A stretch of 64,000 nt of DNA from Acidobacteriota bacterium (GTDB taxonomy: Bacteria > Acidobacteriota > Terriglobia > Terriglobales > Acidobacteriaceae). Numbering within the stretch: position 1 is the first letter of the stretch; the number at the start of each line of letters is the position of its first letter. The DNA lies in contig QIAA01000051.1 in the NCBI GenBank assembly GCA_003224905.1, positions 516 to 64,515 of the forward strand, in the 5' to 3' direction. The notes under the pieces were generated by a model. The model had not been told where the DNA came from. It did no database searches and saw only the letters and a program-made list of their open reading frames with translations. A program made the position numbers and the translations under genes. Positions 1 through 48,440 of this stretch are shown here, one piece after another.

Positions 1-1252
1 ACCAGAAAGTATCGGTGGCGGAAACTGCATCGATATCGACGGTGGTCTGATCGAAGACGGCGGGGGTGATCTGCGAGGCGACAAAGCGCTGCCAGATCAG
101 CTTGTAAACCTTGTATTCATCTTCTTTCAGATATTGCTTGATCTGATCGGGATGGCGCATGGCCGAGGTTGGGCGGATGGCCTCGTGCGCACCTTGAGCT
201 TCCTTCTTCTCCTTATATGTATTGGGTGATTCCGGCAAATAAGAATCGCCATACTGCGATTTGATGTACTCACGGACCTCGGTCAGGGCGTCGTTCGAGA
301 CTCGGGTGGAGTCCGTACGCATGTAGGTGATGAGACCGATGGAGCCTTCCTCTCCCAGTTCGACGCCTTCGTAGAGGCGCTGGGCGATCATCATGGTACG
401 TTTCACGCTGAAGCGCAGTTTGCGTGAGGAGTCTTGCTGCAGCTTGCTGGTGGTGAAGGGAGCAGCCGCGTTGCGTCTGCGTTCTTTGCGGTCAACGGTG
501 CGAACTGTCCAGTCGGCTTTCTCAAGTGCGGCGCGGAGTTTCTCGGCTTCGTCGCCGTTCGGAATCTCGATCTTTTCTTCGCCTTTGCCGAGGAAGCGAG
601 CGTCGAAAGCTGGTGGCTTGGCGGCGGCAAGGTGGGCGTCGATCGTCCAGTATTCCTTCTTCTCGAAGGCTTTGATTTCGCGCTCGCGTTCAACGATCAG
701 GCGCAGCGCGACGGTTTGGACGCGACCAGCGGAGAGGCCACGGCGGACTTTGTCCCACAGCAAGGGAGAGACCTGATAGCCCACCAAACGATCCAGCACG
801 CGGCGGGCCTGCTGCGCGTCGACCAAGTGCTGATCGATGCTGCGAGGGTGCTCGAACGCCGCTTGGACGGCGCGCTTGGTGATCTCGTTGAAAGTAACGC
901 GGCGGAAGCGCTCGTCTTCCTCCGTTTTCTTTTTTCTTTTTTTCCTGGAGCCGTTGCCAAGTTCCTCAGCAAGGTGGGCGGCGATGGCCTCGCCTTCGCG
1001 GTCCGGGTCGGGGGCGAGATAAATGGTATCCGCCGAGAGGGCCAGCTTCTTCAGCTTGGCGACAACTTTCTCTTTGCCGGGGATGACGATGTATTCGGTT
1101 TCGAAGTCATTGTCGATGTCGACGCCCAGGGTGCTCTTGGGCAGATCTTTGACATGGCCGAGGGAAGCCTCGACTGTGTAGCCCTTTCCCAGATATTTTT
1201 CGATGGTCTTCGCCTTGGCAGGCGACTCGACTATTACTAAGCCCTTGGACAA
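1..1252 (-). CDS. topA: DNA topoisomerase I, N-terminal ~417 codons (gene continues past the window start)
   Basis: Absent from the ORF track because it runs off the window. My minus-strand translation from TTG at 1252 reads LSKGLVIVESPAKAKTIEKYLGKGYTVEASLGHVKDLP (Toprim). At the window edge it reads VYKLIWQRFVASQITPAVFDQTTVDIDAVSATDTFW. + strand ORF 434..1240 is its antisense shadow. Confidence 0.9.
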   Translation of the reverse strand, partial: MSKGLVIVESPAKAKTIEKYLGKGYTVEASLGHVKDLPKSTLGVDIDNDFETEYIVIPGKEKVVAKLKKLALSADTIYLAPDPDREGEAIAAHLAEELGNGSRKKRKKKTEEDERFRRVTFNEITKRAVQAAFEHPRSIDQHLVDAQQARRVLDRLVGYQVSPLLWDKVRRGLSAGRVQTVALRLIVEREREIKAFEKKEYWTIDAHLAAAKPPAFDARFLGKGEEKIEIPNGDEAEKLRAALEKADWTVRTVDRKERRRNAAAPFTTSKLQQDSSRKLRFSVKRTMMIAQRLYEGVELGEEGSIGLITYMRTDSTRVSNDALTEVREYIKSQYGDSYLPESPNTYKEKKEAQGAHEAIRPTSAMRHPDQIKQYLKEDEYKVYKLIWQRFVASQITPAVFDQTTVDIDAVSATDTFW

Positions 1253-1312
1253 CGTGACCTCGGTAGATGTGAAACTAGCATGAATGGGACAGAACTGTCA
1301 GCTACCCGCTTT

Positions 1313-1344
1313 AGCTCTTAGCTTTTAGCTCTTAGCTTTTAGCT
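1313..1344. repeat. Left arm of inverted repeat: 2.3 tandem copies of the 14-mer AGCTCTTAGCTTTT
   Basis: Read directly. 1320..1344 (AGCTTTTAGCTCTTAGCTTTTAGCT) is the perfect reverse complement of 1736..1760. It overlaps the stop and last five codons (LKAKS) of the four-helix-bundle gene. Confidence 0.9.
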
Positions 1345-1711
1345 GAACCACCTCAGCTCTCGGTTTGAGTCTTAGCGACAGCGACGACAGCATTCGCATC
1401 ACTTCGCTGAGATCCGACCGGAGGTGCTCGAAGCATGTCCTCGAGAGAAAATTCAAATCCCGCGCGAGTCGTAGATGATACGAAAGCTCTGCACCAGATC
1501 CCATTGCAATCTGTACAAATCTCGCCATTTCGGCGTCAGATCGTCTGCCACACCCCTCGGCGAGATTGGCGCCGATTGAAGAGCAAGACCTTTGAAATTG
1601 ACTCGTAAGCCCGAATCGTTCTTCGTTTGGAAAGCCTTGAGTACTTTTGTATATCGCAAGCGTCAGTCCATGCGCTTTCTGCCAAACTTGCAGGTCTTCG
1701 TAGTTTCTCAT
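1325..1711 (-). CDS. Four-helix-bundle protein (23S rRNA intervening-sequence protein / Avd-like family)
   Basis: 128 aa. YEDLQVWQKAHGLTLAIYKSTQGFPNEERFGLTSQFQRSCSSIGANLAEGCGRRS...FVQIAMGSGAELSYHL matches the family pattern LxVWQKA..IY..T..FP..E...L.SQ.RR...SI..N.AEG..R. Confidence 0.85.
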   Translation of the reverse strand: MRNYEDLQVWQKAHGLTLAIYKSTQGFPNEERFGLTSQFQRSCSSIGANLAEGCGRRSDAEMARFVQIAMGSGAELSYHLRLARDLNFLSRTCFEHLRSDLSEVMRMLSSLSLRLKPRAEVVQLKAKS

Positions 1712-1735
1712 AACAGCCCTCGGCCCTCGGGCTTG

Positions 1736-1760
1736 AGCTAAAAGCTAAGAGCTAAAAGCT
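1736..1760. repeat. Right arm of the 25-bp perfect inverted repeat
   Basis: AGCTAAAAGCTAAGAGCTAAAAGCT is the reverse complement of 1320..1344. It overlaps the dprA stop codon (1752..1754) and its last codons. Confidence 0.9.
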
Positions 1761-2993
1761 TTTAACAAAATTCTTGCCCGGAAGCTGCCTGACTTTGCCC
1801 GCGAGTTCCAATTCAAATAAGGCTGCGAAGATTTCGGAAGAGGAAAGCTCCCGCTCCAACTTCTCGACCACTTCGTCGATGTGAGTCGCTTCGTCGGCTT
1901 TCAGGAGGCGCAGTATTTTGCGCTCGTGCGGCCCCAACTCCGCTTCTCCGAATAGAGATGCGGTTTGAACGCCGTTGGATTCATTGCCGGCCGAGGGCTG
2001 GAGCGCAAGTCGCACATCTGCCGGTAGTTCCTCCCAAACATCGTCCCATGTAGCAACCAGTTTGGCGCCCTGCTTGATTAGCGTATTCGGACCCCAGGAA
2101 TTCTTGTTTGTGACGTTACCAGGAACGGCGTAAAGATCGCGATTCTGTTCCAGGGCGCAGCGCGAGGTGATACGCGTGCCACTGTACTCTGCGGCTTCCA
2201 CTACAAGCACACCTAGAGAGATCCCACTGATGATTCGGTTGCGGATAGGAAAATTCTGTGGGGCCGGGAAGGTGTTCAGCGGGAATTCGGAGATGATTGC
2301 ACCTCCAAGCCCGAGCATTTGTTCCACTAAACGGCGGTTCTCTTTGGGATAAATTTCGTCAACACCAGTGCCGAAAACAGCGACTGTCTTGCCTTTTGCT
2401 GTGATTGCGCCGCGGTGGGCAGCCGCATCAACTCCTCGGGCTAAGCCGCTGAAAATCACTAAACCGCGCGCGGCCAGATCACAAGCGAGGCGTTCGGCCA
2501 TGCCCAGCCCGTAGGGTGTGGGATGACGCGTACCGACGACTGCGATTCCGGGCTGCGAGATCGCTTGCGAGTTTCCGCGCACATACAGAATAAGGGGCGG
2601 ATCATAGATTTGCTTTAGCTGCGCCGGGTAGGCGGAATCGTCAAAGCAGAGGAGTGAAACATCAGCTTGCGCTGCGCGTCCAAGTTCGTCGTGCGCCAAT
2701 TCCAGCGAACGGCCAGTCGCGAGCGATTGAGCAGAGACGGCCTGCATACCAGTGCCTTCCAGCTCGGTGAGCGTTGCCTTAAGCACGTTTTCTGCGCTGC
2801 CAAAATGTTCGGCGATTTTGCGGGCCTTCAGTGGGCCTAAGCCAGGAGTAAGGGAAAGCGCCAACCAATGCAGGACGGGAGCATCAGCGGTAGTGGCACG
2901 TACTGTAGCGGCCTCTGGCAAAGCAACACCTCCGGATATAACTTTCGCGGACTCTATACATGACTGAAAAGCTCTGTCAAGGTAAGCCGACAC
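1752..2993 (-). CDS. dprA: DNA-processing protein DprA (Smf)
   Basis: 413 aa. Rossmann-like core GIAVVGTRHPTPYG...IFSGLARGVDAAAHRGA...AVFGTGVDEIYPKEN...LISEFP, plus a C-terminal winged-helix-like tail. Confidence 0.9.
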   Translation of the reverse strand: MSAYLDRAFQSCIESAKVISGGVALPEAATVRATTADAPVLHWLALSLTPGLGPLKARKIAEHFGSAENVLKATLTELEGTGMQAVSAQSLATGRSLELAHDELGRAAQADVSLLCFDDSAYPAQLKQIYDPPLILYVRGNSQAISQPGIAVVGTRHPTPYGLGMAERLACDLAARGLVIFSGLARGVDAAAHRGAITAKGKTVAVFGTGVDEIYPKENRRLVEQMLGLGGAIISEFPLNTFPAPQNFPIRNRIISGISLGVLVVEAAEYSGTRITSRCALEQNRDLYAVPGNVTNKNSWGPNTLIKQGAKLVATWDDVWEELPADVRLALQPSAGNESNGVQTASLFGEAELGPHERKILRLLKADEATHIDEVVEKLERELSSSEIFAALFELELAGKVRQLPGKNFVKSF

Positions 2994-3020
2994 ATTGCTT
3001 TGTTAGAATCGAACATAGGA

Positions 3021-3860
3021 ATGAAACGTCTTCGCATTTCTGCGATTTCCTACTTGAATACTGCTCCGCTCATGTGGGATTTTGAGCATGGGGATGCAGG
3101 GTCGGCATTCGAGATTTCCTACACTTTGCCTTCAGGCTGTGCGGCGGCCCTGGCAGACGGGTCGGCCGATATTGGGATCATTCCGGCTGCGGCGTACGCC
3201 ACGATCCCAGGGCTGGTGATTCTTCCTGAAGTGGCCATTGCGGCGCGTGGCCCAGTGCGATCCATCCTGCTGGTCTGCAAAGTTCCACTTGAAAATGTGA
3301 GCTCGGTAGCCCTCGATTCTTCCTCACTAACTTCGGTTGCGCTGACAAGAGTGTTGTTCAAGAAGTGGTGGGGAGCAGGCAGAAGATTCAGCTCCACGGC
3401 GCCGAATCTAGAGCGCATGCTCGAGGAGTGTGACGCGGCTCTGTTGATTGGAGATTCTGCCCTTAAAATAAATCGGACACGCTACCTCACCTACGATCTT
3501 GCGGAGGAATGGGTCCGGCTCACGAATAAACCTTTCGTTTTCGCGTTCTGGGCAGTGCGTCAAGCTGCCCTGGAAGAATGCTCTCCGACTCTGGATCTGA
3601 GTTCTGTATTCAAGCAATCGCGCGATCACGGACTGCTCACAAAGAATGTCGCCGATATCGCAAAGGAGTGGAGCCCGCGTATTGGACTGGACGAAAATGA
3701 GGTGAGGAGCTATTTGACCGAGAACATTCATTATCAGGTGGACCCAGAGTGCATCGAAGGTTTAAGCCTCTTTTATAGCTATGCCCAGGAATGCGGAGTG
3801 TTGCCTTCTGCACGGCCGCTGCAATTTCTCGAAAGTCCGAAATCCGCATTCGTTCAGTAG
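3021..3860 (+). CDS. mqnA: Chorismate dehydratase MqnA (futalosine pathway)
   Basis: MKRLRISAISYLNTAPLMWDF is a typical MqnA N-terminus (VitK2_biosynth family). ATG at 3021 is preferred over the TTG at 3000, which would sit 6 nt from the dprA start. Confidence 0.8.
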   Translation: MKRLRISAISYLNTAPLMWDFEHGDAGSAFEISYTLPSGCAAALADGSADIGIIPAAAYATIPGLVILPEVAIAARGPVRSILLVCKVPLENVSSVALDSSSLTSVALTRVLFKKWWGAGRRFSSTAPNLERMLEECDAALLIGDSALKINRTRYLTYDLAEEWVRLTNKPFVFAFWAVRQAALEECSPTLDLSSVFKQSRDHGLLTKNVADIAKEWSPRIGLDENEVRSYLTENIHYQVDPECIEGLSLFYSYAQECGVLPSARPLQFLESPKSAFVQ

Positions 3861-3905
3861 TGGCTCGGACCACTCAGAGTGGAAATTCTGCCTCTAACGT
3901 GAACC

Positions 3906-4556
3906 ATGCTGGCGCATCTCCACGTGCTATTCGCAGGAACTACTTTGAACTGGGTTCGGCGCCTGGGCGGTCCGGGACTAGTATTGTTGGGATTTGCCGA
4001 CAATTCTGTCGTGCCGCTGCCGGGGAGCATGGACGTGCTGACAATCTGGCTGGCTGCTCGACATCGTGACCTCTGGCCCTACTACGCTTTTATGGCCACC
4101 GCGGGTGCTGTGCTAGGCGGCTACGTCACCTATTCGCTAGGGCGCAAAGGAGGGAAGCAGGCGATCGAACGCAAATTGCACAAAGACCGGGCGCAGAGAC
4201 TCTTCAGCCGCTTCAGCCACTGGGGATTCAGGACGGTCTTCTTCAGCGCAATGCTGCCGCCCCCGTTTCCCATGGTGCCGGTCCTGCTGGCCGCAGGCGC
4301 ATTTCAATATTCGCGCAAGAAGTTTGTAGGAGCACTGGCCGCCGGCCGTGGTGTTCGATACACACTCGCCGCCGGCTTAGGTTCGCTCTACGGACGACAC
4401 ATCGTTGTGTTCTTCTCGCGCTACTACAAGCCGGCGCTAATGGTCCTAGTGAGCCTGGCCCTGCTGGGAGGAATTCTGACTCTGCTCGAATACCTGCGCT
4501 CGCGGCGGGGCCGACAACGGCAGCCGGAGCCGGTCTCGCATGGCCGCGCAGCCTGA
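3906..4556 (+). CDS. YqaA/DedA-type (SNARE-associated) membrane protein
   Basis: 216 aa, multi-TM. GFADNSVVPLPGSMDVLTIWLAA...ATAGAVLGGYVTYSLGRKGG resembles the YqaA family core. Confidence 0.6.
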   Translation: MLAHLHVLFAGTTLNWVRRLGGPGLVLLGFADNSVVPLPGSMDVLTIWLAARHRDLWPYYAFMATAGAVLGGYVTYSLGRKGGKQAIERKLHKDRAQRLFSRFSHWGFRTVFFSAMLPPPFPMVPVLLAAGAFQYSRKKFVGALAAGRGVRYTLAAGLGSLYGRHIVVFFSRYYKPALMVLVSLALLGGILTLLEYLRSRRGRQRQPEPVSHGRAA

Positions 4557-5069: not shown

Positions 5070-5401
5070 GCCTCCAACCTCTCCAGTCCGGCCTTTGCGA
5101 ACTGCCGAAGGGTGGTCAGTTTGGCGCGGAGAACGCGCAGACCCACAGCAGTAATGCGATAGGGCCGGCGTCGCTCCTCAGGGGGAAGTGGCTCGATCCA
5201 ACCCTGCTGCTCCAGGCGGGCAATCGCTCCGTATAGCGTTCCCGGCCCGAGACGGGTTCCGCAAAGGCGCACAATATCTTCGATCATCGCGTGCCCGTGT
5301 TTCGGTCCACTGGCGAGACTGGCCAGCACAAGCAGCGGCGGATCGGAATAGTGGCCCAGCCCCGAGTCCTGTTTCTGTGCTACGTCTTGCGTACTACGCA
5401 T
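5066..5401 (-). CDS. PadR family transcriptional regulator
   Basis: LLVLASLASGPKHGHAMIEDI...GPGTLYGAIARLEQQGWIE...RRPYRITAVG is a PadR winged helix. I place the start at the ATG at 5401 (MRSTQD). The longer track ORF reaching 5536 would abut the mqnC start at 5535. Confidence 0.8.
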   Translation of the reverse strand: MRSTQDVAQKQDSGLGHYSDPPLLVLASLASGPKHGHAMIEDIVRLCGTRLGPGTLYGAIARLEQQGWIEPLPPEERRRPYRITAVGLRVLRAKLTTLRQFAKAGLERLEA

Positions 5402-5534: not shown

Positions 5535-6581
5535 ATGTCACTGACCCGCCAGCAAGCCCTCGATCTCTATCGCTCCGACGACCTGATCGGGATCGGGATG
5601 GAAGCCGATGGTGTGCGGCGCAAGCTGCACCCTCAGCACGTAGTTACCTACATCATTGACCGCAATATTAATTACACGAATTTCTGCACCGAATATTGTA
5701 CGTTTTGCGCGTTCTATCGTCCGCTGAAAGGCGTACGGGCGAAAGACGGTTATATCCTCGATTACGAGACCATTTACGACAAGATTCGTGAGACGGTGGA
5801 ACTTGGCGGGACGGGCGTGTTGATGCAGGGCGGGCTGCATCCCGATCTCAAGATTGACTGGCATGAGAAGATGCTGCGCGGCATCAAGCAGCGTTTTCCG
5901 AAAGTGCATCTGCACTGCTATTCGGCCTCGGAGATCATCGCTATCGCGGAATACAGCGGGCTTCCGATACGAGACACGATCGCGCGATTACGGGATGCTG
6001 GACTGGATTCGATCCCGGGTGGAGGGGCGGAGATCCTGGATGATGAAGTCCGCTACCGGATTGCCCGACTGAAGTGCCTGACAGATGACTGGCTGAACGT
6101 GCATCGCACGGCTCACCAGCTGGGGATGAGAACGACTGCGACCATGATGTTTGGTGTGGGCGAGAGCTATGAGCACCGGGTAAATCACTTTCAGCGGCTT
6201 TACGAGCTGCAGGAGGAGACCGGCGGCTTCACGGCATTTATTCCCTGGACCTTCCAGCCTGCGAATACTGCTCTCGGCGGGCGGCAGTGGGATGAGGCAA
6301 CTGCAGTTGAATATCTAAAAGTCTTGGCTATCTCACGGCTGTATCTTTCAAACTTCCTCAATGTGCAATCGAGTTGGGTGACGCAGGGACTCAAAGTCTG
6401 CCAGCTGGGATTGCGCTTCGGGGGGAACGATGTTGGGTCAGTAATGCTGGAAGAGAATGTGGTGCGTGCGGCCGGCGTCACGAATTGCACTACAGAAGAA
6501 GAGCTGCGCCGCATGATTCGTGATGCGGGGTTCAAGCCGGTGCAGCGGGACACGTTGTACAGAACGTACTTTTTGAATTGA
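5535..6581 (+). CDS. mqnC: Radical SAM menaquinone enzyme, most likely cyclic dehypoxanthinyl futalosine synthase MqnC (MqnE not excluded)
   Basis: 348 aa. VVTYIIDRNINYTNFCTEYCTFCAFYRP carries the CxxxCxxC cluster, and the length fits MqnC. Confidence 0.7.
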   Translation: MSLTRQQALDLYRSDDLIGIGMEADGVRRKLHPQHVVTYIIDRNINYTNFCTEYCTFCAFYRPLKGVRAKDGYILDYETIYDKIRETVELGGTGVLMQGGLHPDLKIDWHEKMLRGIKQRFPKVHLHCYSASEIIAIAEYSGLPIRDTIARLRDAGLDSIPGGGAEILDDEVRYRIARLKCLTDDWLNVHRTAHQLGMRTTATMMFGVGESYEHRVNHFQRLYELQEETGGFTAFIPWTFQPANTALGGRQWDEATAVEYLKVLAISRLYLSNFLNVQSSWVTQGLKVCQLGLRFGGNDVGSVMLEENVVRAAGVTNCTTEEELRRMIRDAGFKPVQRDTLYRTYFLN

Positions 6582-14692: not shown

Positions 14693-16681
14693 GTGTTTAT
14701 GGTCTTGTCGCGGCGGGTGACTGGGCTGATCGTGCTGATCGCGGGCCTTGGTGTCGGCACGAGCGTTTTGGCGTTCGGTAAGAAAGATAAGCACAGCCTA
14801 CCCGCGTCCCAAATGGAGGAATCGAAACGCGCGCTGCATGCGTTGAATCGGTTGACGTTTGGGCCGCGGGCGGGGGATGTGCAGCGCGTGCTTGCCATGG
14901 GGTTGGAGAAGTGGATCGACGAGCAGCTTCATCCGGAGAAGGTTGATGATCACGCGGTCGAGGCGCGGCTGGCGCCGTTCCGCACGTTGCGGATGGATAC
15001 GCGCGAGATCGTGGAGAACTTTCCGTCGCAGCAGGTGATCAAGGCGGTGGCGGAAGGCAAGCAGTCGATGCCCTCGGATGCAGCTCAGCGCGCCGTGTAT
15101 CGCGCACAGCTGGAGCGTTACGAGGAGAAGAAAGAGCGGAAAGAGGAGCCCGGCGGCTCGGAAGCGGCGACGGGAGGTGACAAGCTCAGCGATGAGCAGC
15201 GCGCGCGGCGGCGCGAGGACCGGTTCTATGCCGACGTCAAGGCTGAAGAGATGCTCGACCTGCCGCCCGATCAGCGGTTCAAAGAGATTCTGAAGATGTC
15301 GCCGGCAGAGCAGCGGGGGTTTTCTAACGCGCTGAAAGGCAACCGGCGAGACGACTTCATGGAAGGCATGGATTCGCGGCAGCGCGAGACTTTGATGGCG
15401 CTGAACAATCCGCAGCAGGTGGTTACGGATGAACTGGTTCAGGGCAATCTGCTGCGGGCCATCTACAGCGAGCGCCAGCTTGATGAAGTGATGATGGATT
15501 TCTGGTTCAACCACTTCAATGTATTTATCGGGAAGGGGGCGGATCGATATCTGCTCACCAGTTATGAGCGGGATGTGATTCGTCCGCATGGGCTGGGGAA
15601 ATTTGAGGAACTGCTGGTGGCCACGGCCCAGAGCCCGGCGATGCTGTTCTATCTGGACAATTGGTTAAGCGTGGGTCCGAATTCGGATGCGGCGAATGGA
15701 ATTCCGAAGCACGGGCCTGACCGGAACAGGCGCCGGCGAATGGCGCGGCGGTTTCCGCAGAAGCAGGCGAAAGGCAAGCGCAACGGCTTAAATGAAAACT
15801 ACGGGCGCGAACTGATGGAGCTGCATACGCTGGGCGTGAACGGAGGCTATACACAGAAAGATGTGACCGAAGTCGCGCGCGTGTTCACCGGCTGGACGCT
15901 GAAGCAGCCGAAGCAGGGCGGAGGGTTCACCTTCGAAGAGCGCATGCATGAGCCGGGAGACAAGATCGTGCTCGGGCATCGGATAAAGTCCGGCGGCGAG
16001 AAGGAAGGGCGAGAGGTGCTGCACCTGCTGGCGCGGAATCCGTCGACGGCGCGATTTATCTGCACCAAGCTGGCGGGGCGATTTGTTTCCGATAACCCGC
16101 CGACGAGTCTGGTGGATCGAATGTCACAGAAGTTTCTTAAGAAAGACGGCGATATTCGTGAAGTGTTGAAGGCTATGCTCGAATCTCCGGAATTCTGGTC
16201 GCTGGAGGCGTATCGCGCCAAGGTGAAAACGCCGCTGGAGTTTGTGGTTTCGGGGGTGCGCGCAACCGGCGCTGATGTGGGCGATGCCACGCCGCTGGCC
16301 CGGCAATTGCAATCGATGGGAATGCCACTGTACGGAGCGCAACCACCGACGGGCTATTCCACGAAAGCTGACGCCTGGGTGAATTCCTCCTCGTTGCTGG
16401 GGCGTATGAACTTCGCCCTGGCGTTGACCGGGGGGAAATTGAAGGGAGTGCGAGTGGATGCGGATACTAATGTTGCATCCCATGATCCGCCGGGAGTTCT
16501 TGCTGAGCTGGAGAATACCTTGTTGGCCGGCGATGTTTCGAAGCAGACGCACGACACTATTGCCGCGAAACTGGATGATCCGGCGATCACGCAGCGCAAA
16601 CTTGACGATGCCGCGCGGGCGCCGGATGTTAAGGTGATCACAGGATTGTTGCTTGGTTCGCCTGAGTTTCAGAGGAGATAG
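14693..16681 (+). CDS. DUF1800 domain protein
   Basis: 662 aa with an N-terminal hydrophobic anchor. FWFNHFNVF...RELMELHTLGV...YTQKDV is typical of DUF1800. It is paired with the downstream DUF1501 gene. Confidence 0.75.
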   Translation: MFMVLSRRVTGLIVLIAGLGVGTSVLAFGKKDKHSLPASQMEESKRALHALNRLTFGPRAGDVQRVLAMGLEKWIDEQLHPEKVDDHAVEARLAPFRTLRMDTREIVENFPSQQVIKAVAEGKQSMPSDAAQRAVYRAQLERYEEKKERKEEPGGSEAATGGDKLSDEQRARRREDRFYADVKAEEMLDLPPDQRFKEILKMSPAEQRGFSNALKGNRRDDFMEGMDSRQRETLMALNNPQQVVTDELVQGNLLRAIYSERQLDEVMMDFWFNHFNVFIGKGADRYLLTSYERDVIRPHGLGKFEELLVATAQSPAMLFYLDNWLSVGPNSDAANGIPKHGPDRNRRRRMARRFPQKQAKGKRNGLNENYGRELMELHTLGVNGGYTQKDVTEVARVFTGWTLKQPKQGGGFTFEERMHEPGDKIVLGHRIKSGGEKEGREVLHLLARNPSTARFICTKLAGRFVSDNPPTSLVDRMSQKFLKKDGDIREVLKAMLESPEFWSLEAYRAKVKTPLEFVVSGVRATGADVGDATPLARQLQSMGMPLYGAQPPTGYSTKADAWVNSSSLLGRMNFALALTGGKLKGVRVDADTNVASHDPPGVLAELENTLLAGDVSKQTHDTIAAKLDDPAITQRKLDDAARAPDVKVITGLLLGSPEFQRR

Positions 16682-16724
16682 ATGACAGCTATCAGCCCAT
16701 ACGTGATGAAGAAGAAAATGCATA

Positions 16725-16762
16725 GATCCTTCGGCGCAAAGAACGCGCCTCAGGATGACAGG
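16725..16762 (+). repeat. Hairpin repeat, TCCTTCG...CTCAGGATGACA family (copy A)
   Basis: GATCCTTCGGCGCAAAGAACGCGCCTCAGGATGACAGG. Nested stems ATCCT/AGGAT and GGCGC/GCGCC, read by eye. Confidence 0.7.
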
Positions 16763-16818
16763 TTTAGAGGGACGGCGTTAACTGAAAGCTGATCGCTGAT
16801 GGCTGAAAGCTAAGACTT

Positions 16819-18054
16819 ATGTCCATTACACGACGCATCTTTCTTCGGGATAGCGCGCTGGCGGTTGTGGGTACGGCCGCGATTCCCAGCTTCCTGACCC
16901 GTGCAGCGTTCGGGGCTGCTGCTGGAGCTCGGAACAAGCGTCTGGTTGTGATTTTTCAGCGCGGGGCAGCGGATGGGCTGAATATCGTCGTGCCCCATGG
17001 CGAGCAGGGGTATTACGCAATGCGGCCCTCGATCAACATTCCGCGCAACTCGGTGATTGATCTTGACGGGTTCTTCGGGTTGCATCCGGCTATGTCTCCG
17101 CTGCAGGCGCTGTGGGATCAGCGTCATCTTGCGATCATACATGCGGCCGGGTCGCCCGATCCGACGCGCTCCCACTTCGATGCGCAGGATTTCATGGAAT
17201 CGGGAACGCCCGGGTTGAAGGCGACCGAGGATGGGTGGCTGAATCGGGCCCTGCATTCTGCATTTGCGCCGGCTGAAAAGTCTGCGTTCCGAGCGGTTGC
17301 GTTGGGGCCGTCGCTGCCGCGGATTCTCACCGGAGGCGAGCCCGCAATTGCTGTGAATAACATCAACGACTTCGGGGTCGGAGGCCGGAATTCTTCGTCT
17401 GTAGCCAACACCTTTGAGGCGATGTACGCGAACTCGGTCGATGCGGTGCTGCACGGCACGGGCAACGAGACTTTCGAAGCGGTGAAGATGCTGAAGTCGG
17501 CGAATCCGGCGAAGTACGCTCCCGCCCCGGGGGCAAATTATCCGCGGGGGCGATTCGGGGAAAGCCTGAAAGAGCTGGCGCAGCTTATCAAAGCCAACTT
17601 GGGCGTACAGGTGGCGTTTGCTGACATCGGCGGCTGGGATCACCACGTCAACGAAGGCAGCACGCAGGGGCAGCTGGCGAATGTGCTGCGTGAATTCTCC
17701 CAATCGCTGGGGGCATTCTGGATTGATCTCGGCGATTTGGCGGAAGATACGGTGGTTATAACGATGTCCGAGTTCGGGCGGACGGCGCGCGAAAATGGCA
17801 ATCGCGGGACTGACCACGGACATGCCAACGTGATGTTCGTTATGGGTGGTCCGGTGAAGGGCGGCAAAGTTTACGGACGGTGGCCGGGGCTGGACCAGTC
17901 ACAACTCTATGAAGGGCGAGATTTGGCAGTCACGACGGACTTCCGGCGGGTGATCGGGGAGGCGGTGTATCAGCATCTGGGGAACAAGAATTTGGACAGG
18001 GTGTTTCCAACGTTCCCCAACCAGCCGGGAACGTTTTTGCATGTCTTAGGGTAA
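16819..18054 (+). CDS. DUF1501 domain protein (sulfatase-like fold) with twin-arginine signal
   Basis: MSITRRIFLRDSALAVVGTAAIPSF is a TAT-type signal. GGWDHH...EFGRT...GTDHGH is the DUF1501 core. Confidence 0.85.
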   Translation: MSITRRIFLRDSALAVVGTAAIPSFLTRAAFGAAAGARNKRLVVIFQRGAADGLNIVVPHGEQGYYAMRPSINIPRNSVIDLDGFFGLHPAMSPLQALWDQRHLAIIHAAGSPDPTRSHFDAQDFMESGTPGLKATEDGWLNRALHSAFAPAEKSAFRAVALGPSLPRILTGGEPAIAVNNINDFGVGGRNSSSVANTFEAMYANSVDAVLHGTGNETFEAVKMLKSANPAKYAPAPGANYPRGRFGESLKELAQLIKANLGVQVAFADIGGWDHHVNEGSTQGQLANVLREFSQSLGAFWIDLGDLAEDTVVITMSEFGRTARENGNRGTDHGHANVMFVMGGPVKGGKVYGRWPGLDQSQLYEGRDLAVTTDFRRVIGEAVYQHLGNKNLDRVFPTFPNQPGTFLHVLG

Positions 18055-28015: not shown

Positions 28016-31000
28016 ATGAGAGATCTCGGTGCTCGCACGAAAGTAGTCCTCATACTTCTCGCAGTCCTGACAATGTTGGGCTGCCAGGCGCTGAACGCCA
28101 GCAAGCCCACGCAAGTCAGCCAATCCAGTCAGTCGAGCCAGACTGCTACGAGTCAAGACTCAGACCTTACTCCCAACATGGCGGTATTGGATTTTGGAAC
28201 CGTTACCGTCGGCGGCACGGAAGTATTGAGTAATACGGTGGTCAATAAGGGTGATTCGTCGATCAGGATCAAGAAAGCAGTACTTCGCAGATCGGAGTTC
28301 ACGATAGCAGGCGAGAAACTGCCTACGACGCTGGCGCCGGGTGAAAGTACATCGCTAGAAATTGCGTACAGTCCCCGCACGCATGGAAGCTCACAGGATA
28401 CGGTCACGCTTACAACCGACACCTCAAGCTTGTCCACATCATTCTCAGTGCGCGGACAATCCACGTCGCCTGGGCAACTGACCGTAAACCCAAGCAGCGT
28501 GACGTTTGGCATGGTGGCAGTGGGAAGCAGCCTGAGCAAGACAGCCACGCTATCAAATGTCGGGGGATCAGATCTCATAGTTAATCAGGTTAGTGCCAGC
28601 GACCTTAACTTTAGTGTGAGCGGAATTTCGGTTCCGCTGACCCTGGCGCCGGGCCAAAGTGTGGCCGTGGCGGTGACCTTCGCGCCAACGTCGAGCGGAG
28701 CTGATAGCGGTTCGGTTTCTATCATTGCGACGGTTTCAACTTCGGGCGGTGGCCACAAGGGCAAAGGTGGACACAGCTTGACGGCCGCTGCCAGCACATC
28801 GACGACGGCTACAGTCGCAGTCTCTGGCACGGGAGTCATGACGGGACAATTAGCCGCTGCGCCGGCCAGCATTGATTTCGGAAAGGTGCAGATCAACAGC
28901 AGCCCGCAGGTGGTGACCGGGACTTTGACCAACTCAGGCGGGACCAGCGTTAATATCAATACGGCGACGATTACCGGAGCCGGGTTTACGCTGAGCGGAT
29001 TGAGTTCGTCGCTCGCGCTTGCTCCGGGTGGAAGCGTTAGCTTCAGCGTAAGCTTTGCTCCTCAGACTTCCGGAGCGGTGTCGGGCAACATTGCCGTAAG
29101 TAGTGATGCTGCTAATTCCTCACTCAACGTGCCTCTTGCAGGTACAGGAGTCACGCCGGGGTCGGTGGTTTCAAGCCCTTCCAGTCTCGGGTTTGGGACC
29201 GTGCAGGTTAACACTAGTAAGACCCTCTCAGCCACGGTTACAAATTCAGGAGGAACGTCGGTCACAATCAGCCAGGCCACGGCGACAGGTACTGGATATG
29301 GTCTCGGAAATTTCAGCGTGCCGCTGACATTGTCGGCAGGACAGAGCAAGACGTTCAGCGTAACGTTTGCGCCTCAGTCGAGCGGATCGGCGAGCGGAAG
29401 CGTTTCAATTATCAGTGATGCTTCCGACCCCACGATGAATGTGCCGCTGTCCGGTACCGGCGCAACCCCAGGAACTCTTGGAGCAAACCCGGGATCTTTG
29501 AGTTTCGGGAACGTGCAGGTCGGCAGTTCGCAAACTTTGCAGGAAACCGTAAGCAACTCTGGGGGCTCAAGTGTGACCATCACTCAGGCGAACGTGCCGA
29601 GTGGGTTCACGGTTACCGGGCTTACACTGCCCGCGACAGTCGGCGCTGGGCAAAGTACAAGCTTTAGCGTGAAGTTCAGTCCGCAAGCTGGAGGGCCGGC
29701 AAGCGGAAATCTTTCCATCATCAGCGACGCGTCGAACCCGACGCTTGGCGTGTCCCTCTCAGGAGCTGGTACGACACCTGGTTCGCTTGCCGCAAGTCCG
29801 GCAAGTTTAAGCTTCGGGAACGTGCAGGCCGGCAATTCGCAAACTCTGCAGGAAACCGTAACCAACTCCGGTGGTTTAAGTGTGACCATCACTCAGGCGA
29901 ACGCGCCGAGTGGGTTCACGGTCACGGGGCTTACCCTACCGGCGACAGTGGGAGCTGGACAAAGTACGAGTTTCAGCGTGAAGTTCAGTCCGCAATCTGG
30001 AGGGCCGGCAAGCGGAAATCTCTCTATAATCAGCGACGCTTCGAACCCGACGCTTAGCGTGCCCCTCTCCGGATCAGGCACGACGCCAGGTTCGCTTGCC
30101 CCAAGTCCGGCAAGTCTGAGTTTCGGAAGTGTGCAGGTTGGCGATACGAAGAGCCTGCAAGAAACTCTAACCAATTCCGGCGGGTCAACCGTCAGTGTCA
30201 CACAGGCTAACTCCACGAACGCTGCTTTCGTCGTGAGCGGCCTAACTTTGCCGCTGACACTGGGGGCGGGGCAGAGCGCGAGTTTCAATGTCAGCTTTAA
30301 TCCGCAATCTGGCGGGCCGGCGAGCGGAAAGGTATCGGTCCTCAGCGACGCGTCGAATTCCACACTGGACATCTCTCTTTCAGGAACCGGAACCACGCCC
30401 GGGGTGCTAGGTGTGACGTCGTCTTCTCTCAGCTTTGGCAGCGTGGCGATTAACAGCACTGGGAGTAAAACGGAAAGCCTGACCAACTCGGGCGGTACGG
30501 CTGTGAAAGTCAGTCAGGCGAATGTCACTGGCACGGGCTTCAGCATAACTGGGCTAGCTTTGCCTCTGACCCTAAATCCAGGACAGAGCTTTACCTTCGG
30601 AGTGAACTTTGCACCTACATCAGCCGGCAGTGTCAGCGGGAGTATCGGATTTGTGTCGGATGCTTCGAATCCGAATTTAAGTGTGACACTTTCAGGCACG
30701 GGAGCGAGTGTGGGTCAGTTGACAGTTTCGCCTGCGACTCTGAGTTTCGGCAGCGTCATCGTGGGCCAGAATAAGACTATGAGCGCCACATTGAGTGCGA
30801 CCGGCGCCAACGTAACAATCTCCTCTGCCGGGTTTAACACTTCGGAATTCACTCTCAGCGGAGTCTCATTCCCACTGACGGTCACGGTCGGACAGAGCGC
30901 GACTGTGAGCGTGGTATTCACGCCGCAGGCGAGCGGCACGGCATCGGACAGCGTTTCGTTCGCCAGTAATGCATCCAACTCACCGGCTGTCGAAGCCTTG

Positions 31001-46726: not shown

Positions 46727-48440
46727 TTGGCGATGAAAGTCTACGACGCGATTGTGGTGGGAACGGGGGCCGGCGGCGGCACTGCCATGAAATTGCTGTG
46801 CGAAGCGGGCCTGCAGGTGTGCGCGATCAATTCGGGGCCGCGCACTAACCCGGCGGAGGATTATCGCCGACACCGGCAGGTTTACGACTTGAAATATCGG
46901 GGATACGGCGACCCCTTGCGGCTCCAGGGCAAGGCACACCAGGAGCCGTACTCGGTGGAGGAGTCCGAGTACAGCGAAGTCCGAGTACAGCGAAGGCAGA
47001 GACCTCTTCGAGCACGATGTGGCGTACACAAACGCGCCAGGTACCGACTGGTACTGGAAGCGGTGCAAAGCAACCGGCGGCAAGGCCAATTTTTGGGGGC
47101 GCTCTTCGGCGCGCTTCGGGGATATCGATTTCAAGGCAGCGGACCTCGACGGGTTTGGCGAAAACTGGCCGGTAGACTATGCGGAAATTGCGCCGTGGTT
47201 TTCGAAAGCCGAGCGCTATATGGGGGTGGCCAGCACGGTTCAGAATCGGCCCAGCAATCCGGATGGCGAGTATCTGCCGCCAATGCCGTGGCGGTGTATC
47301 GATTACATTATCCAAAAGGCGGGCGAAAAGATCGGCGTACCGTATCTGCCGGACCGGTGTGCTCAACTGACGATCGCGCATAACGGCCATCCAGCATGTC
47401 ATTACTGCGGAAACTGCAGCCGGGGCTGTGAGGTCGGGGCGTTCTTCTCTCCCACGTGGTTCACGATACCGGAGGCCGAACTTACCAAGAACCTGACGCT
47501 TCTCACCAACGCTCTGGTACGCGGCGTGATCGTGGACGAAAACGGAATGGCAAAGGGTGTGGCATACGTTGACCGCGCCACCAAGAAAGAGGTGGAAGTG
47601 TATGCCAAGGTGGTCGTGCTGGCGGCGTCATGTGTCGAGACCGCGCATATTATGTTGAATTCGAAGTCACGCCATTGGCCGACCGGGATCGCCAATTCCA
47701 GCGGCCAGCTCGGCCGAAATTTGTGCGAGCACCTGTACGGCAACCCTGGGTACGGTTACTTGCCACGGCTGCTGGGTCAGCCTGCAACTCCTGACAATAT
47801 TGCCGATTCCACGGTGGCCTGGACGCCGCGCTGGCAGAATTTGAAAAATCCACGCGAAGAGAAATTCATTCGGGGCTACTCGCTGTACATCGGCGGTGGC
47901 TGTGGAGAGTTTCCGTGGTATTACGGACAGATCGAAGGTTTCGGAAAGAACTTTAAGCGCGAAATCAAGCGATACTATCCAACGCCGATTGGCGCGTTAA
48001 TCCAGGCTCCGACCCTACCCAGCCCTACCAACTACATCGATATTGATCCGGAAAAGAAAGACATATTCGGAATTCCGCAACTTCGCTTTCACTTCCAGTG
48101 GGGCCAGAACGAACTGTTGATGTGGGAACATTCAAAGCAAGTAATGATTGATCTGTTCAAAGCCATGGGTGCGGAGATGTGGGGCGCAGACGGCGAGCCC
48201 AACCGTCCGGGAACCAGTCTGCACGAGACTGGCGTCTGCAGGTTCGGGAACGATCCCAAGAGGTATGTCACCAACAAGGGGGCGCAAACTCACGACGTTC
48301 CGAATCTCTACATCTGCGATGCCAGCATTTTTCCGAGTTGCACGGATAAAACTACGACGATGCCGATCGTCGCATTTACGATGCGCACCTGTGATCACAT
48401 GCTCGAGAATTTCAAGAAGGGTGTTCACAAGCGCGCGTAA
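46727..48440 (+). pseudogene. GMC family FAD oxidoreductase disrupted by a 16-bp tandem duplication
   Basis: The N-terminal part (46727.., YDAIVVGTGAGGG) and the C-terminal part (47019..48440, ...HETGVCRFG...ICDASIFPS) are in frames 2 and 0. Deleting one 16-mer joins them as EESEYSEGRDLFEHDVAYTNAPGTDWYW. Confidence 0.8.
46963..46994 (+). repeat. Exact tandem duplication of GTCCGAGTACAGCGAA (2 x 16 bp)
   Basis: Read base by base: 46963..46978 equals 46979..46994. Confidence 0.95.

Follow-up and report, generated by a model that had tools for sequence, protein, structure and literature searches.

A PF05635 four-helix-bundle gene bracketed by inverted heptad arrays between dprA and topA in Acidobacteriota

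Introduction

What is a gene of a protein family discovered in ribosomal RNA intervening sequences (IVSs) doing between two protein-coding genes, enclosed by repeats that are complementary to one another? The question is raised by a locus in a 64,000-nucleotide stretch of DNA from an Acidobacteriota bacterium of the Terriglobales (contig QIAA01000051.1 of assembly GCA_003224905.1, positions 516 to 64,515), here called the window, in which a 128-aa four-helix-bundle (4HB) gene lies between dprA and topA with an inverted repeat at either end. A sequence-only reading had described it as an Avd/23S-IVS-type gene in an mRNA context, with repeats that might form a stem, either cut by RNase III or insulating the genes in translation, or might be the footprints of a small mobile cassette. 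The families concerned, PF05635 and TIGR02436, comprise thousands of bacterial proteins and, although known from rRNA IVSs for over 30 years, to our knowledge have no assigned function. IVSs bearing an open reading frame (ORF) and a terminal stem, scattered PF05635 genes including those in cas loci, and an excess of heptameric repeats are each already known separately (PMC4990558, PMC3936711, PMC4692102, PMC4679880). New here are an IVS-like cassette in an mRNA context and a heptad-repeat signature that is family-wide; in the literature searched, no paper links PF05635/S23p genes with flanking inverted heptad arrays or describes a dprA-4HB-topA arrangement, and flanking repeats go unmentioned in the PF05635 gene papers.

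Results

The 4HB gene (1325-1711, minus strand) is bracketed by two arms, 1320-1344 and 1736-1760, that are perfect 25-nt reverse complements enclosing 391 nt (1345-1735), and it is the only long ORF inside them, both as the sequence-only reading had stated. Searched with up to three mismatches, the 25-mer matches at the arms alone and has no counterpart in 100 shuffles; the 14-mer, with up to two mismatches, is likewise confined to the arms within the 64-kb window. A repeat search extends the arms to 1320-1347 and 1733-1760 (28 nt, 96% complementarity, 385 nt between), and the whole element measures 441 nt with a stem of 25-28 bp. The genes dprA, 4HB and topA occupy the minus strand in that order and, again as described, the arms overlap two of their stop codons. 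In gene sense the upstream arm (1736-1760, minus strand; AGCTTTTAGCTCTTAGCTTTTAGCT) carries four AGCT cores at 7-nt spacing and contains the dprA stop (1752-1754), the final dprA codons AGC TTT TAG forming its first heptad. The downstream arm (1310-1344, minus strand; sense AGCTAAAAGCTAAGAGCTAAAAGCTAAGAGCTAAA) is a heptad array that contains the 4HB stop (1325-1327) and encodes the conserved C-terminal tail of the protein, QLKAKS.

The basic unit of both arms is 7 nt long, AGCTNTT and its complement, with sense units AGCTTTT and AGCTCTT in the upstream arm and AGCTAAA and AGCTAAG in the downstream arm. Tandem Repeats Finder (TRF) reports period 7 together with period 14 (2.5 copies, 100%) at 1310-1344 and period 7 at 1736-1760. 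The arms are thus tandem arrays as first described, but the 14-mer proposed as their unit is two heptads. When 501 nt of sense RNA is folded, the minimum-free-energy (MFE) and centroid structures both close the element with the long-range stem (z = -4.6). A second, degenerate heptad pair lies in the spacer 16682-16818 between the plus-strand ORFs 14693-16681 and 16819-18054. Its array (16788-16815) reads GCTGATC GCTGATG GCTGAAA GCTAAGA and faces a weak inverted partner, GACAGCTATCAGCC (16686-16699), at the opposite end of the spacer; GACAGCTATCAGCC stands just past the stop codon of the first ORF, and AGCTGATCGCTGATGGCTGAAAGCTAAGA finishes 3 nt short of the ATG of the second. The 13/14 match to the arm unit that had been reported as solitary at 16802-16815 is in fact the end of this array.

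Relatives were collected by a scan of one genome per species, which gave 80 loci, nearly all from Terriglobales or other Acidobacteriota metagenome-assembled genomes; 73 elements were analysable (the window and 72 species), and a set of 74 comprises the window and 73 loci. The order dprA-4HB-topA is kept in 75 of the 80 species loci, and inverted heptad arms flank the gene in all 73 analysable elements. Unique arms and repeat-free relatives had been named in advance as grounds for abandoning the cassette, and all 72 analysable relatives carry repeats; the comparison of dprA-topA junctions covers only relatives that have the gene. Arms are 16-54 nt long (median 32 nt), the commonest array length being 32 nt or five cores, with spacers of 359-455 nt and a median of 464 nt for the whole element. 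The dprA stop falls inside the upstream arm in 53/73 elements and the arm begins within 12 nt of that stop in 69/73, while the 4HB stop falls inside the downstream arm in 44/73.

At this locus 4HB identity ranges from 83% down to 53%, compared with 62-80% for DprA and 67-90% for TopA. The 4HB protein diverges about 2.5 times faster, its distances correlating with those of TopA (Spearman 0.40), and proteins that are 80-85% identical occupy the same dprA-topA junction. The identical protein recurs on contigs from many soil metagenomes, in every case in the order dprA-4HB-topA and with the same arms; ten same-species contigs from different samples are identical, and phase variation via array length was rejected on that ground. 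Judged by these comparisons, the cassette is mostly vertically inherited and no recent insertion; its fixation at the dprA-topA junction in the Terriglobales sampled probably goes back to an early ancestor of that order. In one relative (L093, 4267-6377), an insertion sequence encoding a 468-aa DDE transposase (DUF772/DDE_Tnp_1) on the opposite strand sits between the upstream arm and the 4HB gene and has pushed the arms 2.1 kb apart without the loss of either arm or of the gene.

The encoded protein belongs to the IVS-protein family, scoring 128.3 bits (E=1.7e-37) against PF05635 (23S_rRNA_IVP; cut-off 33.8) and 119.2 bits against NCBIfam TIGR02436 (cut-off 24). The nearest solved structure is that of pentameric XCC0516 (PDB 2GSC, E=5.7e-18 over residues 2-118), with a further match to 2RLD (E=3.9e-7). 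The R-x3-S-x3-N-x2-E motif described for PF05635 proteins (PMC3936711) is represented by R41, S45, N49 and E52 and is invariant in 26 homologues. Of the 74 orthologues, 69 are intact, 62 have an ATG start codon and 60 a preceding Shine-Dalgarno-like motif; dN/dS is approximately 0.13 over 17 unsaturated pairs. Intact, with a Shine-Dalgarno-like motif and this low ratio, the gene encodes a working protein and is under purifying selection. Identity with Avd, the accessory protein of diversity-generating retroelements (DGRs), was considered and rejected: bAvd scores 25.8 against a cut-off of 40 and DivGenRetAVD 26.4 against 80, and neither a reverse transcriptase nor a template/variable repeat pair is found nearby. 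Since the Avd models fall below their cut-offs, sequence comparison places the protein as IVP-type and not Avd proper, so that only the IVS half of the earlier Avd/23S-IVS designation stands.

Whether other 4HB genes carry comparable arms was the check that the sequence-only reading had put forward, and analogous inverted arrays were found well beyond the dprA-topA locus. All five paralogous loci elsewhere in Acidobacteriota, which follow icd-like, nuoF/G-like, accC, tolC-like and thrS genes, have inverted 7-nt arrays built from the units AGCTNTT, CAGTTNN, GCAGTCA and AGTAYTT. In a sample of PLSDB records from Cyanobacteriota, Bacteroidota and Gemmatimonadota, plus Azospirillum (organisms include Pseudanabaena, Calothrix, Nostoc, Anabaena, Picosynechococcus, Leptolyngbya, Geminocystis, Stanieria, Riemerella, Gemmatirosa and Azospirillum), inverted period-7 arrays lie on both sides of 12 of 14 PF05635 genes, two of these having a period of roughly 7-8 nt, and such arrays are rare in the remainder of the sampled loci. 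Examples of their units are AAAAGCT (about 16 tandem copies), TCAGGAG/TTCTGAC, AGGGTGT/CTACACC, GGTTYAA/TTRAACC and GGAGGGC/CTCCTGCC, and the closest cyanobacterial homologues (about 52% identical) share the AGCT-type heptad.

Most of the PLSDB genes are co-oriented inserts in unrelated operons, such as cas10-4HB-cmr3, cas6-4HB-cas4 (twice) and parA-4HB-parB. Those within CRISPR-cas operons of Pseudanabaena pPg_01 (L102), Picosynechococcus (L108) and Anabaena sp. 90 pANA02 (L111) have long heptad arrays, including about 16 copies of AAAAGCT and a stretch of about 270 nt made up of GGTGACA and GGGAACA units, and these genes look like passengers rather than cas components. The copy in Azospirillum lipoferum is part of a 23S rRNA gene (Rfam LSU, 2504 bits), where it follows immediately on the helix-45 sequence CGAAGCUGCGGAU; its arms are also 7-nt periodic (GAGGACG GATGACA GAGGACG GAGGACA and complement). 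It is a genuine, textbook case of an ORF-bearing 23S helix-45 IVS.

Heptad hairpins also occur without the gene. At other junctions of the 80 related loci there are 29 further inverted pairs, most of them empty with spacers of 39-199 nt and a few enclosing unrelated small ORFs (DUF4760, a 152-aa membrane protein and a 184-aa ORF); the internal sequences of the empty elements are not conserved. One orthologous junction, between a gene ending in EAKVDWV and a HAD-like gene, is empty in L049 (11481-11641) and filled in L037 (11464-12059). The same junction is heptad-bracketed in many species (also L070, L093, L041 and L029), where it is either empty (70-115 nt) or holds one small ORF, and at least three unrelated small ORFs occupy it, among them a 152-aa membrane protein that matches no Pfam family; here the hairpin serves as a slot with changing occupants. 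In L068, two successive junctions within a single operon (nuoF-like, 2Fe-2S protein, glutamate-synthase-like) hold an empty hairpin (5114-5246) and a 4HB-filled one (5955-6410), both built from the AGCTNTT family.

A metagenome scan for (AGCTNTT)4AGCT returned at least 120 loci in DNA of 29-68% GC. Among the matches listed, most arrays form hairpins with loops of 10-120 nt, and the T-rich arm lies 5' in 48 against 11 of the opposite polarity by a strand-independent count. Avoidance of terminator-like hairpins, those whose 3' arm is U-rich, within transcription units would be expected to leave such a bias. About a tenth of intergenic regions carry a heptad array, and some contigs (L201 and L233) have five or more heptad hairpins within 14 kb. 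As markers of PF05635 genes AGCTNTT arrays fail in the reverse direction, a PF05635 gene adjoining only 5 of 63 assessable arrays among the matches listed.

The flanking genes complete the layout of the locus. dprA (1752-2993, minus strand) encodes DNA_processg_A and DprA winged-helix domains, its product being 389 aa according to gene callers on identical contigs. The leader between the upstream arm and the 4HB start codon is 24 nt long (1712-1735, minus strand) and carries the two-copy heptad CCGAGGG CCGAGGG (1716-1730) with a Shine-Dalgarno-like GAGG. Between the stem and topA, a putative promoter for topA can be read from the sequence at 1272-1301 (minus strand) as CTGACA (1296-1301), an 18-nt spacer and the extended -10 element TGCTAGTTT (1272-1280). 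This block, GTAACTTGTTGC..ATTCGTGCTAGCTTCAAAAC, also given as TGCTAGCTT, is at least 80% conserved across the 74 elements; a simple consensus promoter scan did not report it. It is followed by TGAGGA and a TTG start that the window shares with most of the relatives displayed in the alignment; from this start the 5' part of topA (Toprim and Topoisom_bac; 1-1240, minus strand, TTG at 1240) runs off the window. On a same-species contig (L009) the caller places a 137-aa minus-strand ORF (1797-2210) at the topA start, with topA from 2288; the first 130 nt past the cassette match the other contigs and an assembly frameshift in topA is the probable cause.

The neighbours of the locus are VitK2_biosynth, DprA, TopA and DUF4760, with no adjacent reverse transcriptase or recombinase. 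The 64-kb window holds no second PF05635 gene, an Rfam scan of positions 1-4000 gave no rRNA or other family apart from a chance miRNA match (E=0.82), and PADLOC returned no defence-system match. Elsewhere in the window, a 309-nt tandem repeat at 29497-30188 (2.2 copies, 85% identity, TRF score 1013) presumably reflects a repeated domain in a large protein, and 46962-46995 is a perfect 16-nt tandem duplication of AGTCCGAGTACAGCGA (2.1 copies).

Discussion

The account we lean towards, at somewhat less than even confidence, is that of an IVS-type cassette residing in an mRNA operon, whose arms pair in a dprA read-through transcript as an RNase III-type duplex while topA is served by its own promoter. 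A promoterless PF05635 gene would occupy the loop of a long-range stem whose strands are the inverted 7-nt arrays. Transcription from dprA would continue across both arrays and the 4HB cistron between them. Since 24 nt before the start codon leave no room for a promoter, the 4HB mRNA most likely includes the upstream arm, and because the downstream arm overlaps the end of the ORF it would include that arm as well; as far as the gene arrangement can tell, read-through from dprA almost certainly gives a message that includes the two arms. The arrays could then pair into a duplex of 25-28 bp (16-54 bp in relatives), looping out the 4HB cistron. A duplex of 25-28 bp is a generic RNase III substrate; it would insulate the 4HB cistron from dprA or, once cleaved, separate the two messages, with topA insulated via its own conserved promoter just downstream of the stem. 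An intrinsic terminator was rejected as a role for the stem because a T-run follows the downstream arm in only 9/73 elements; the terminator scan also found nothing at the arms. The proposal of an IVS-like cassette in an mRNA context survives in so far as its size and layout match those of ORF-bearing 23S IVSs and the Azospirillum arms are alike.

The arms of the dprA-topA elements vary together. The long-range stem is present in the MFE structure of 66/73 orthologous elements, with a median of 27 arm pairs, and lineage-specific heptads change on both arms (AGCTTCT/AGAAGCT, GGCTCTT/AAGAGCC, AGCTGCGAGCT/GCTCGNAGCT, AGCTGTCAGCT/AGCTGAGAGCT), with matched variant classes NTT/AAN, NCT/AGN, GGCT/AGCC, CGAGCT/AGCTCG and NTCAGCT/AGCTGAN. 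In an alignment of 51 species and 25 pairs, 92.1% of cells are paired and 15/25 pairs vary on both sides; 101 cells are compensatory, compared with 40±6 when shuffled, a count that 0/500 shuffles reach, although independence is overstated, the register having been chosen for maximal pairing in an alignment of related species. Several further observations also weigh against a paired RNA as the cause. Selection on an RNA helix should favour G·U and an excess of G·U would therefore be expected, but arm mismatches have no wobble bias, whether counted by local alignment (G·T 94, A·C 82, other 112) or in heptad register (73, 69 and 58). Complementarity is 88.0% compared with 86.3±0.5% when heptad order is shuffled, a value reached in 2/1000 shuffles, and most of it is simply a result of the two arms being built from a single heptad family. 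Ribosomes that terminate at the two in-arm stops would compete with pairing, a cut in mid-stem would remove the 4HB stop codon in this species, and among the matches listed the AGCTNTT arrays adjoin a PF05635 gene in just 5 of 63 assessable cases. A strict mirror order of heptads was tried and set aside, the excess over shuffled order being small; in register, complementarity at variable positions is 81%, falling to 68% on a slide of 7 or 14 nt. The arms thus attest concerted evolution of both arrays but not selection on a sense-strand RNA helix.

The absence of G·U bias and the weak mirroring of heptad order would suit an origin at the DNA level without an RNA role, which we rate a less probable but substantial alternative. 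Slippage-prone heptamers would give rise to arrays, inverted arrays would be homogenised by slippage together with template switching or gene conversion, and the stem would be a by-product, the array loops offering tolerated sites for the gain, retention or loss of small genes, the 4HB gene being one of several. The 29 further pairs, mostly empty and a few with unrelated ORFs, the orthologous junction that is empty in one species and filled in another, the 5/63 association among the matches listed and the spread of arrays across DNA of 29-68% GC are consistent with this, and both the excess of heptameric simple sequence repeats (SSRs) and a polymerase-slippage account of them are published (PMC4692102, PMC4679880). 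Left unexplained, however, is the near-universal bracketing of PF05635 genes (73/73 elements, 5/5 paralogues, 12/14 in other phyla), compared with an array in approximately one intergenic region in ten, as is the fact that a genuine rRNA IVS has this bracket for its functional stem. Nor does it account for the 48:11 excess of T-rich 5' arms among the matches listed, which looks like avoidance of terminator polarity, and arms 359-455 nt apart would be poor substrates for correction by template switching. The one-way association, in which a PF05635 gene is nearly always beside arrays, may instead point to the encoded protein. By analogy with TRAP on triplets, a pentameric ring like that of 2GSC might bind the heptads as RNA or single-stranded DNA with one 7-nt unit per subunit, thereby autoregulating the cassette, modulating stem formation or processing, or aiding spread. 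The Avd pentamer, which is related to PF05635 proteins, binds nucleic acid. A commonest array of five cores, purifying selection with an invariant polar motif, and a heptad of its own for each paralogue (AGCTYTT, CAGTTNN, GCAGTCA, AGTAYTT, GGTTYAA, GGAGGGC, GAGGACG) would fit such binding, as would the AGCT-type heptad of the 52%-identical cyanobacterial homologues. We nevertheless think it unlikely: array copies range from 3 to about 40 rather than a fixed five, binding alone does not require a second, inverted array, most arrays have no PF05635 gene nearby, and protein and heptad do not track simply, paralogues 58-59% identical having unrelated heptads where the more distant cyanobacterial proteins share one. 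RNA stem, DNA-level arrays and protein binding are not mutually exclusive.

Two accounts in which the arms serve DNA rearrangement fare much worse. Reading them as the terminal inverted repeats, or the insertion footprints, of a non-autonomous cassette that moved recently and resembles a miniature inverted-repeat transposable element (MITE), as the sequence-only reading had also considered, is contradicted by synteny in 72 species and mostly vertical inheritance and is in our view very improbable. The same architecture does recur at unrelated loci, and cassettes have reached many sites over evolutionary time. Against recent mobility stand the 75/80 syntenic loci across Terriglobales with 4HB identity down to 53%, the correlation of 4HB with TopA distances, ten identical same-species contigs, and the unrelated spacers of the empty elements; no target-site duplication was seen, no second copy of the arms or gene lies within the 64 kb, and within that span the MITE and REPIN pattern is not seen, arms differing from site to site within a locus. 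An invertible switch, in which recombination between the arms flips the 4HB segment, has the right geometry in inverted repeats of 25-50 bp around a segment of about 400 bp, but the gene has a single orientation in all syntenic loci and in the ten same-species contigs and there is no adjacent recombinase, leaving this scarcely credible.

Returning to the IVS-type cassette, it may be part of something larger. We regard it as improbable, though worth stating, that PF05635 genes with inverted 7-nt arrays make up one unrecognised class of element across phyla, of which the 23S IVS would be the rRNA-resident form, with a ring protein that reads the heptads to control excision, stability or spread, and gene-less hairpins as empty or decayed relatives. 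If true, this would give a biological reason for the long-noted excess of intergenic heptameric repeats. The observations link two puzzles, IVS biology on the one hand and, on the other, the over-representation of tandem heptamers between bacterial genes, and an anonymous "four helix bundle protein" becomes a defined cis-plus-trans unit with testable predictions, namely RNase III cleavage of the stem and heptad binding. They also caution against reading PF05635 genes as functional partners of their host operons, cas operons for example.

Several known systems resemble the cassette in part. Correia and ERIC hairpins are co-transcribed and processed by RNase. With Correia/NEMIS, ERIC and REPIN/RAYT elements (REPINs: PMC3116915) the cassette shares inverted-repeat hairpins inside operons, and with REPIN/RAYT a gene characteristically flanked by repeats and many gene-less hairpins elsewhere; unlike them, its arms are tandem 7-mers that vary from site to site, internal sequence is unconserved and the protein is not a transposase. 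Over-represented heptameric SSRs, such as cyanobacterial short tandemly repeated repetitive (STRR) sequences, the GGGAATC-type of Xanthomonas and Nostoc, and TAACTGA of Beggiatoaceae (PMC4692102, PMC4679880), are similarly tandem 7-nt intergenic units that often abut start or stop codons and are stable between related species; those reports treat direct repeats, and inverted pairing or a PF05635 link was not found there. DGR Avd has the same four-helix-bundle superfamily in common, with pentamers in both Avd and XCC0516/2GSC, but near the cassette there is neither a reverse transcriptase nor a template/variable repeat pair. Closer are the scattered PF05635 genes of Cyanobacteriota and Bacteroidota, which are promoterless, lie between co-oriented genes of unrelated operons and mostly have inverted heptad arrays, although their arrays differ in heptad and in copy number, which reaches about 17-40 in cyanobacteria; PF05635 4HB genes inside cas operons had been noted previously (PMC3936711).

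The nearest counterpart is the 23S helix-45 IVS of Coxiella, Leptospira and Azospirillum lipoferum, in which a PF05635 protein is encoded in the loop of a near-perfect terminal stem, co-oriented with the host transcript. The host differs, being the protein-coding dprA-topA junction rather than an rRNA helix loop, and the arms in the window overlap two stop codons, with RNase III excision only proposed here. The Coxiella IVS is 428-444 nt long with a 28-bp stem that RNase III cuts mid-stem in vitro, and its S23p ORF is decaying and apparently untranslated (PMC4990558), whereas the ORF in the window is intact, has a Shine-Dalgarno-like motif and is under purifying selection. In size the two are alike, the window element being 441 nt with a stem of 25-28 bp, and in the 7-nt periodicity of its arms the cassette resembles the Azospirillum IVS.

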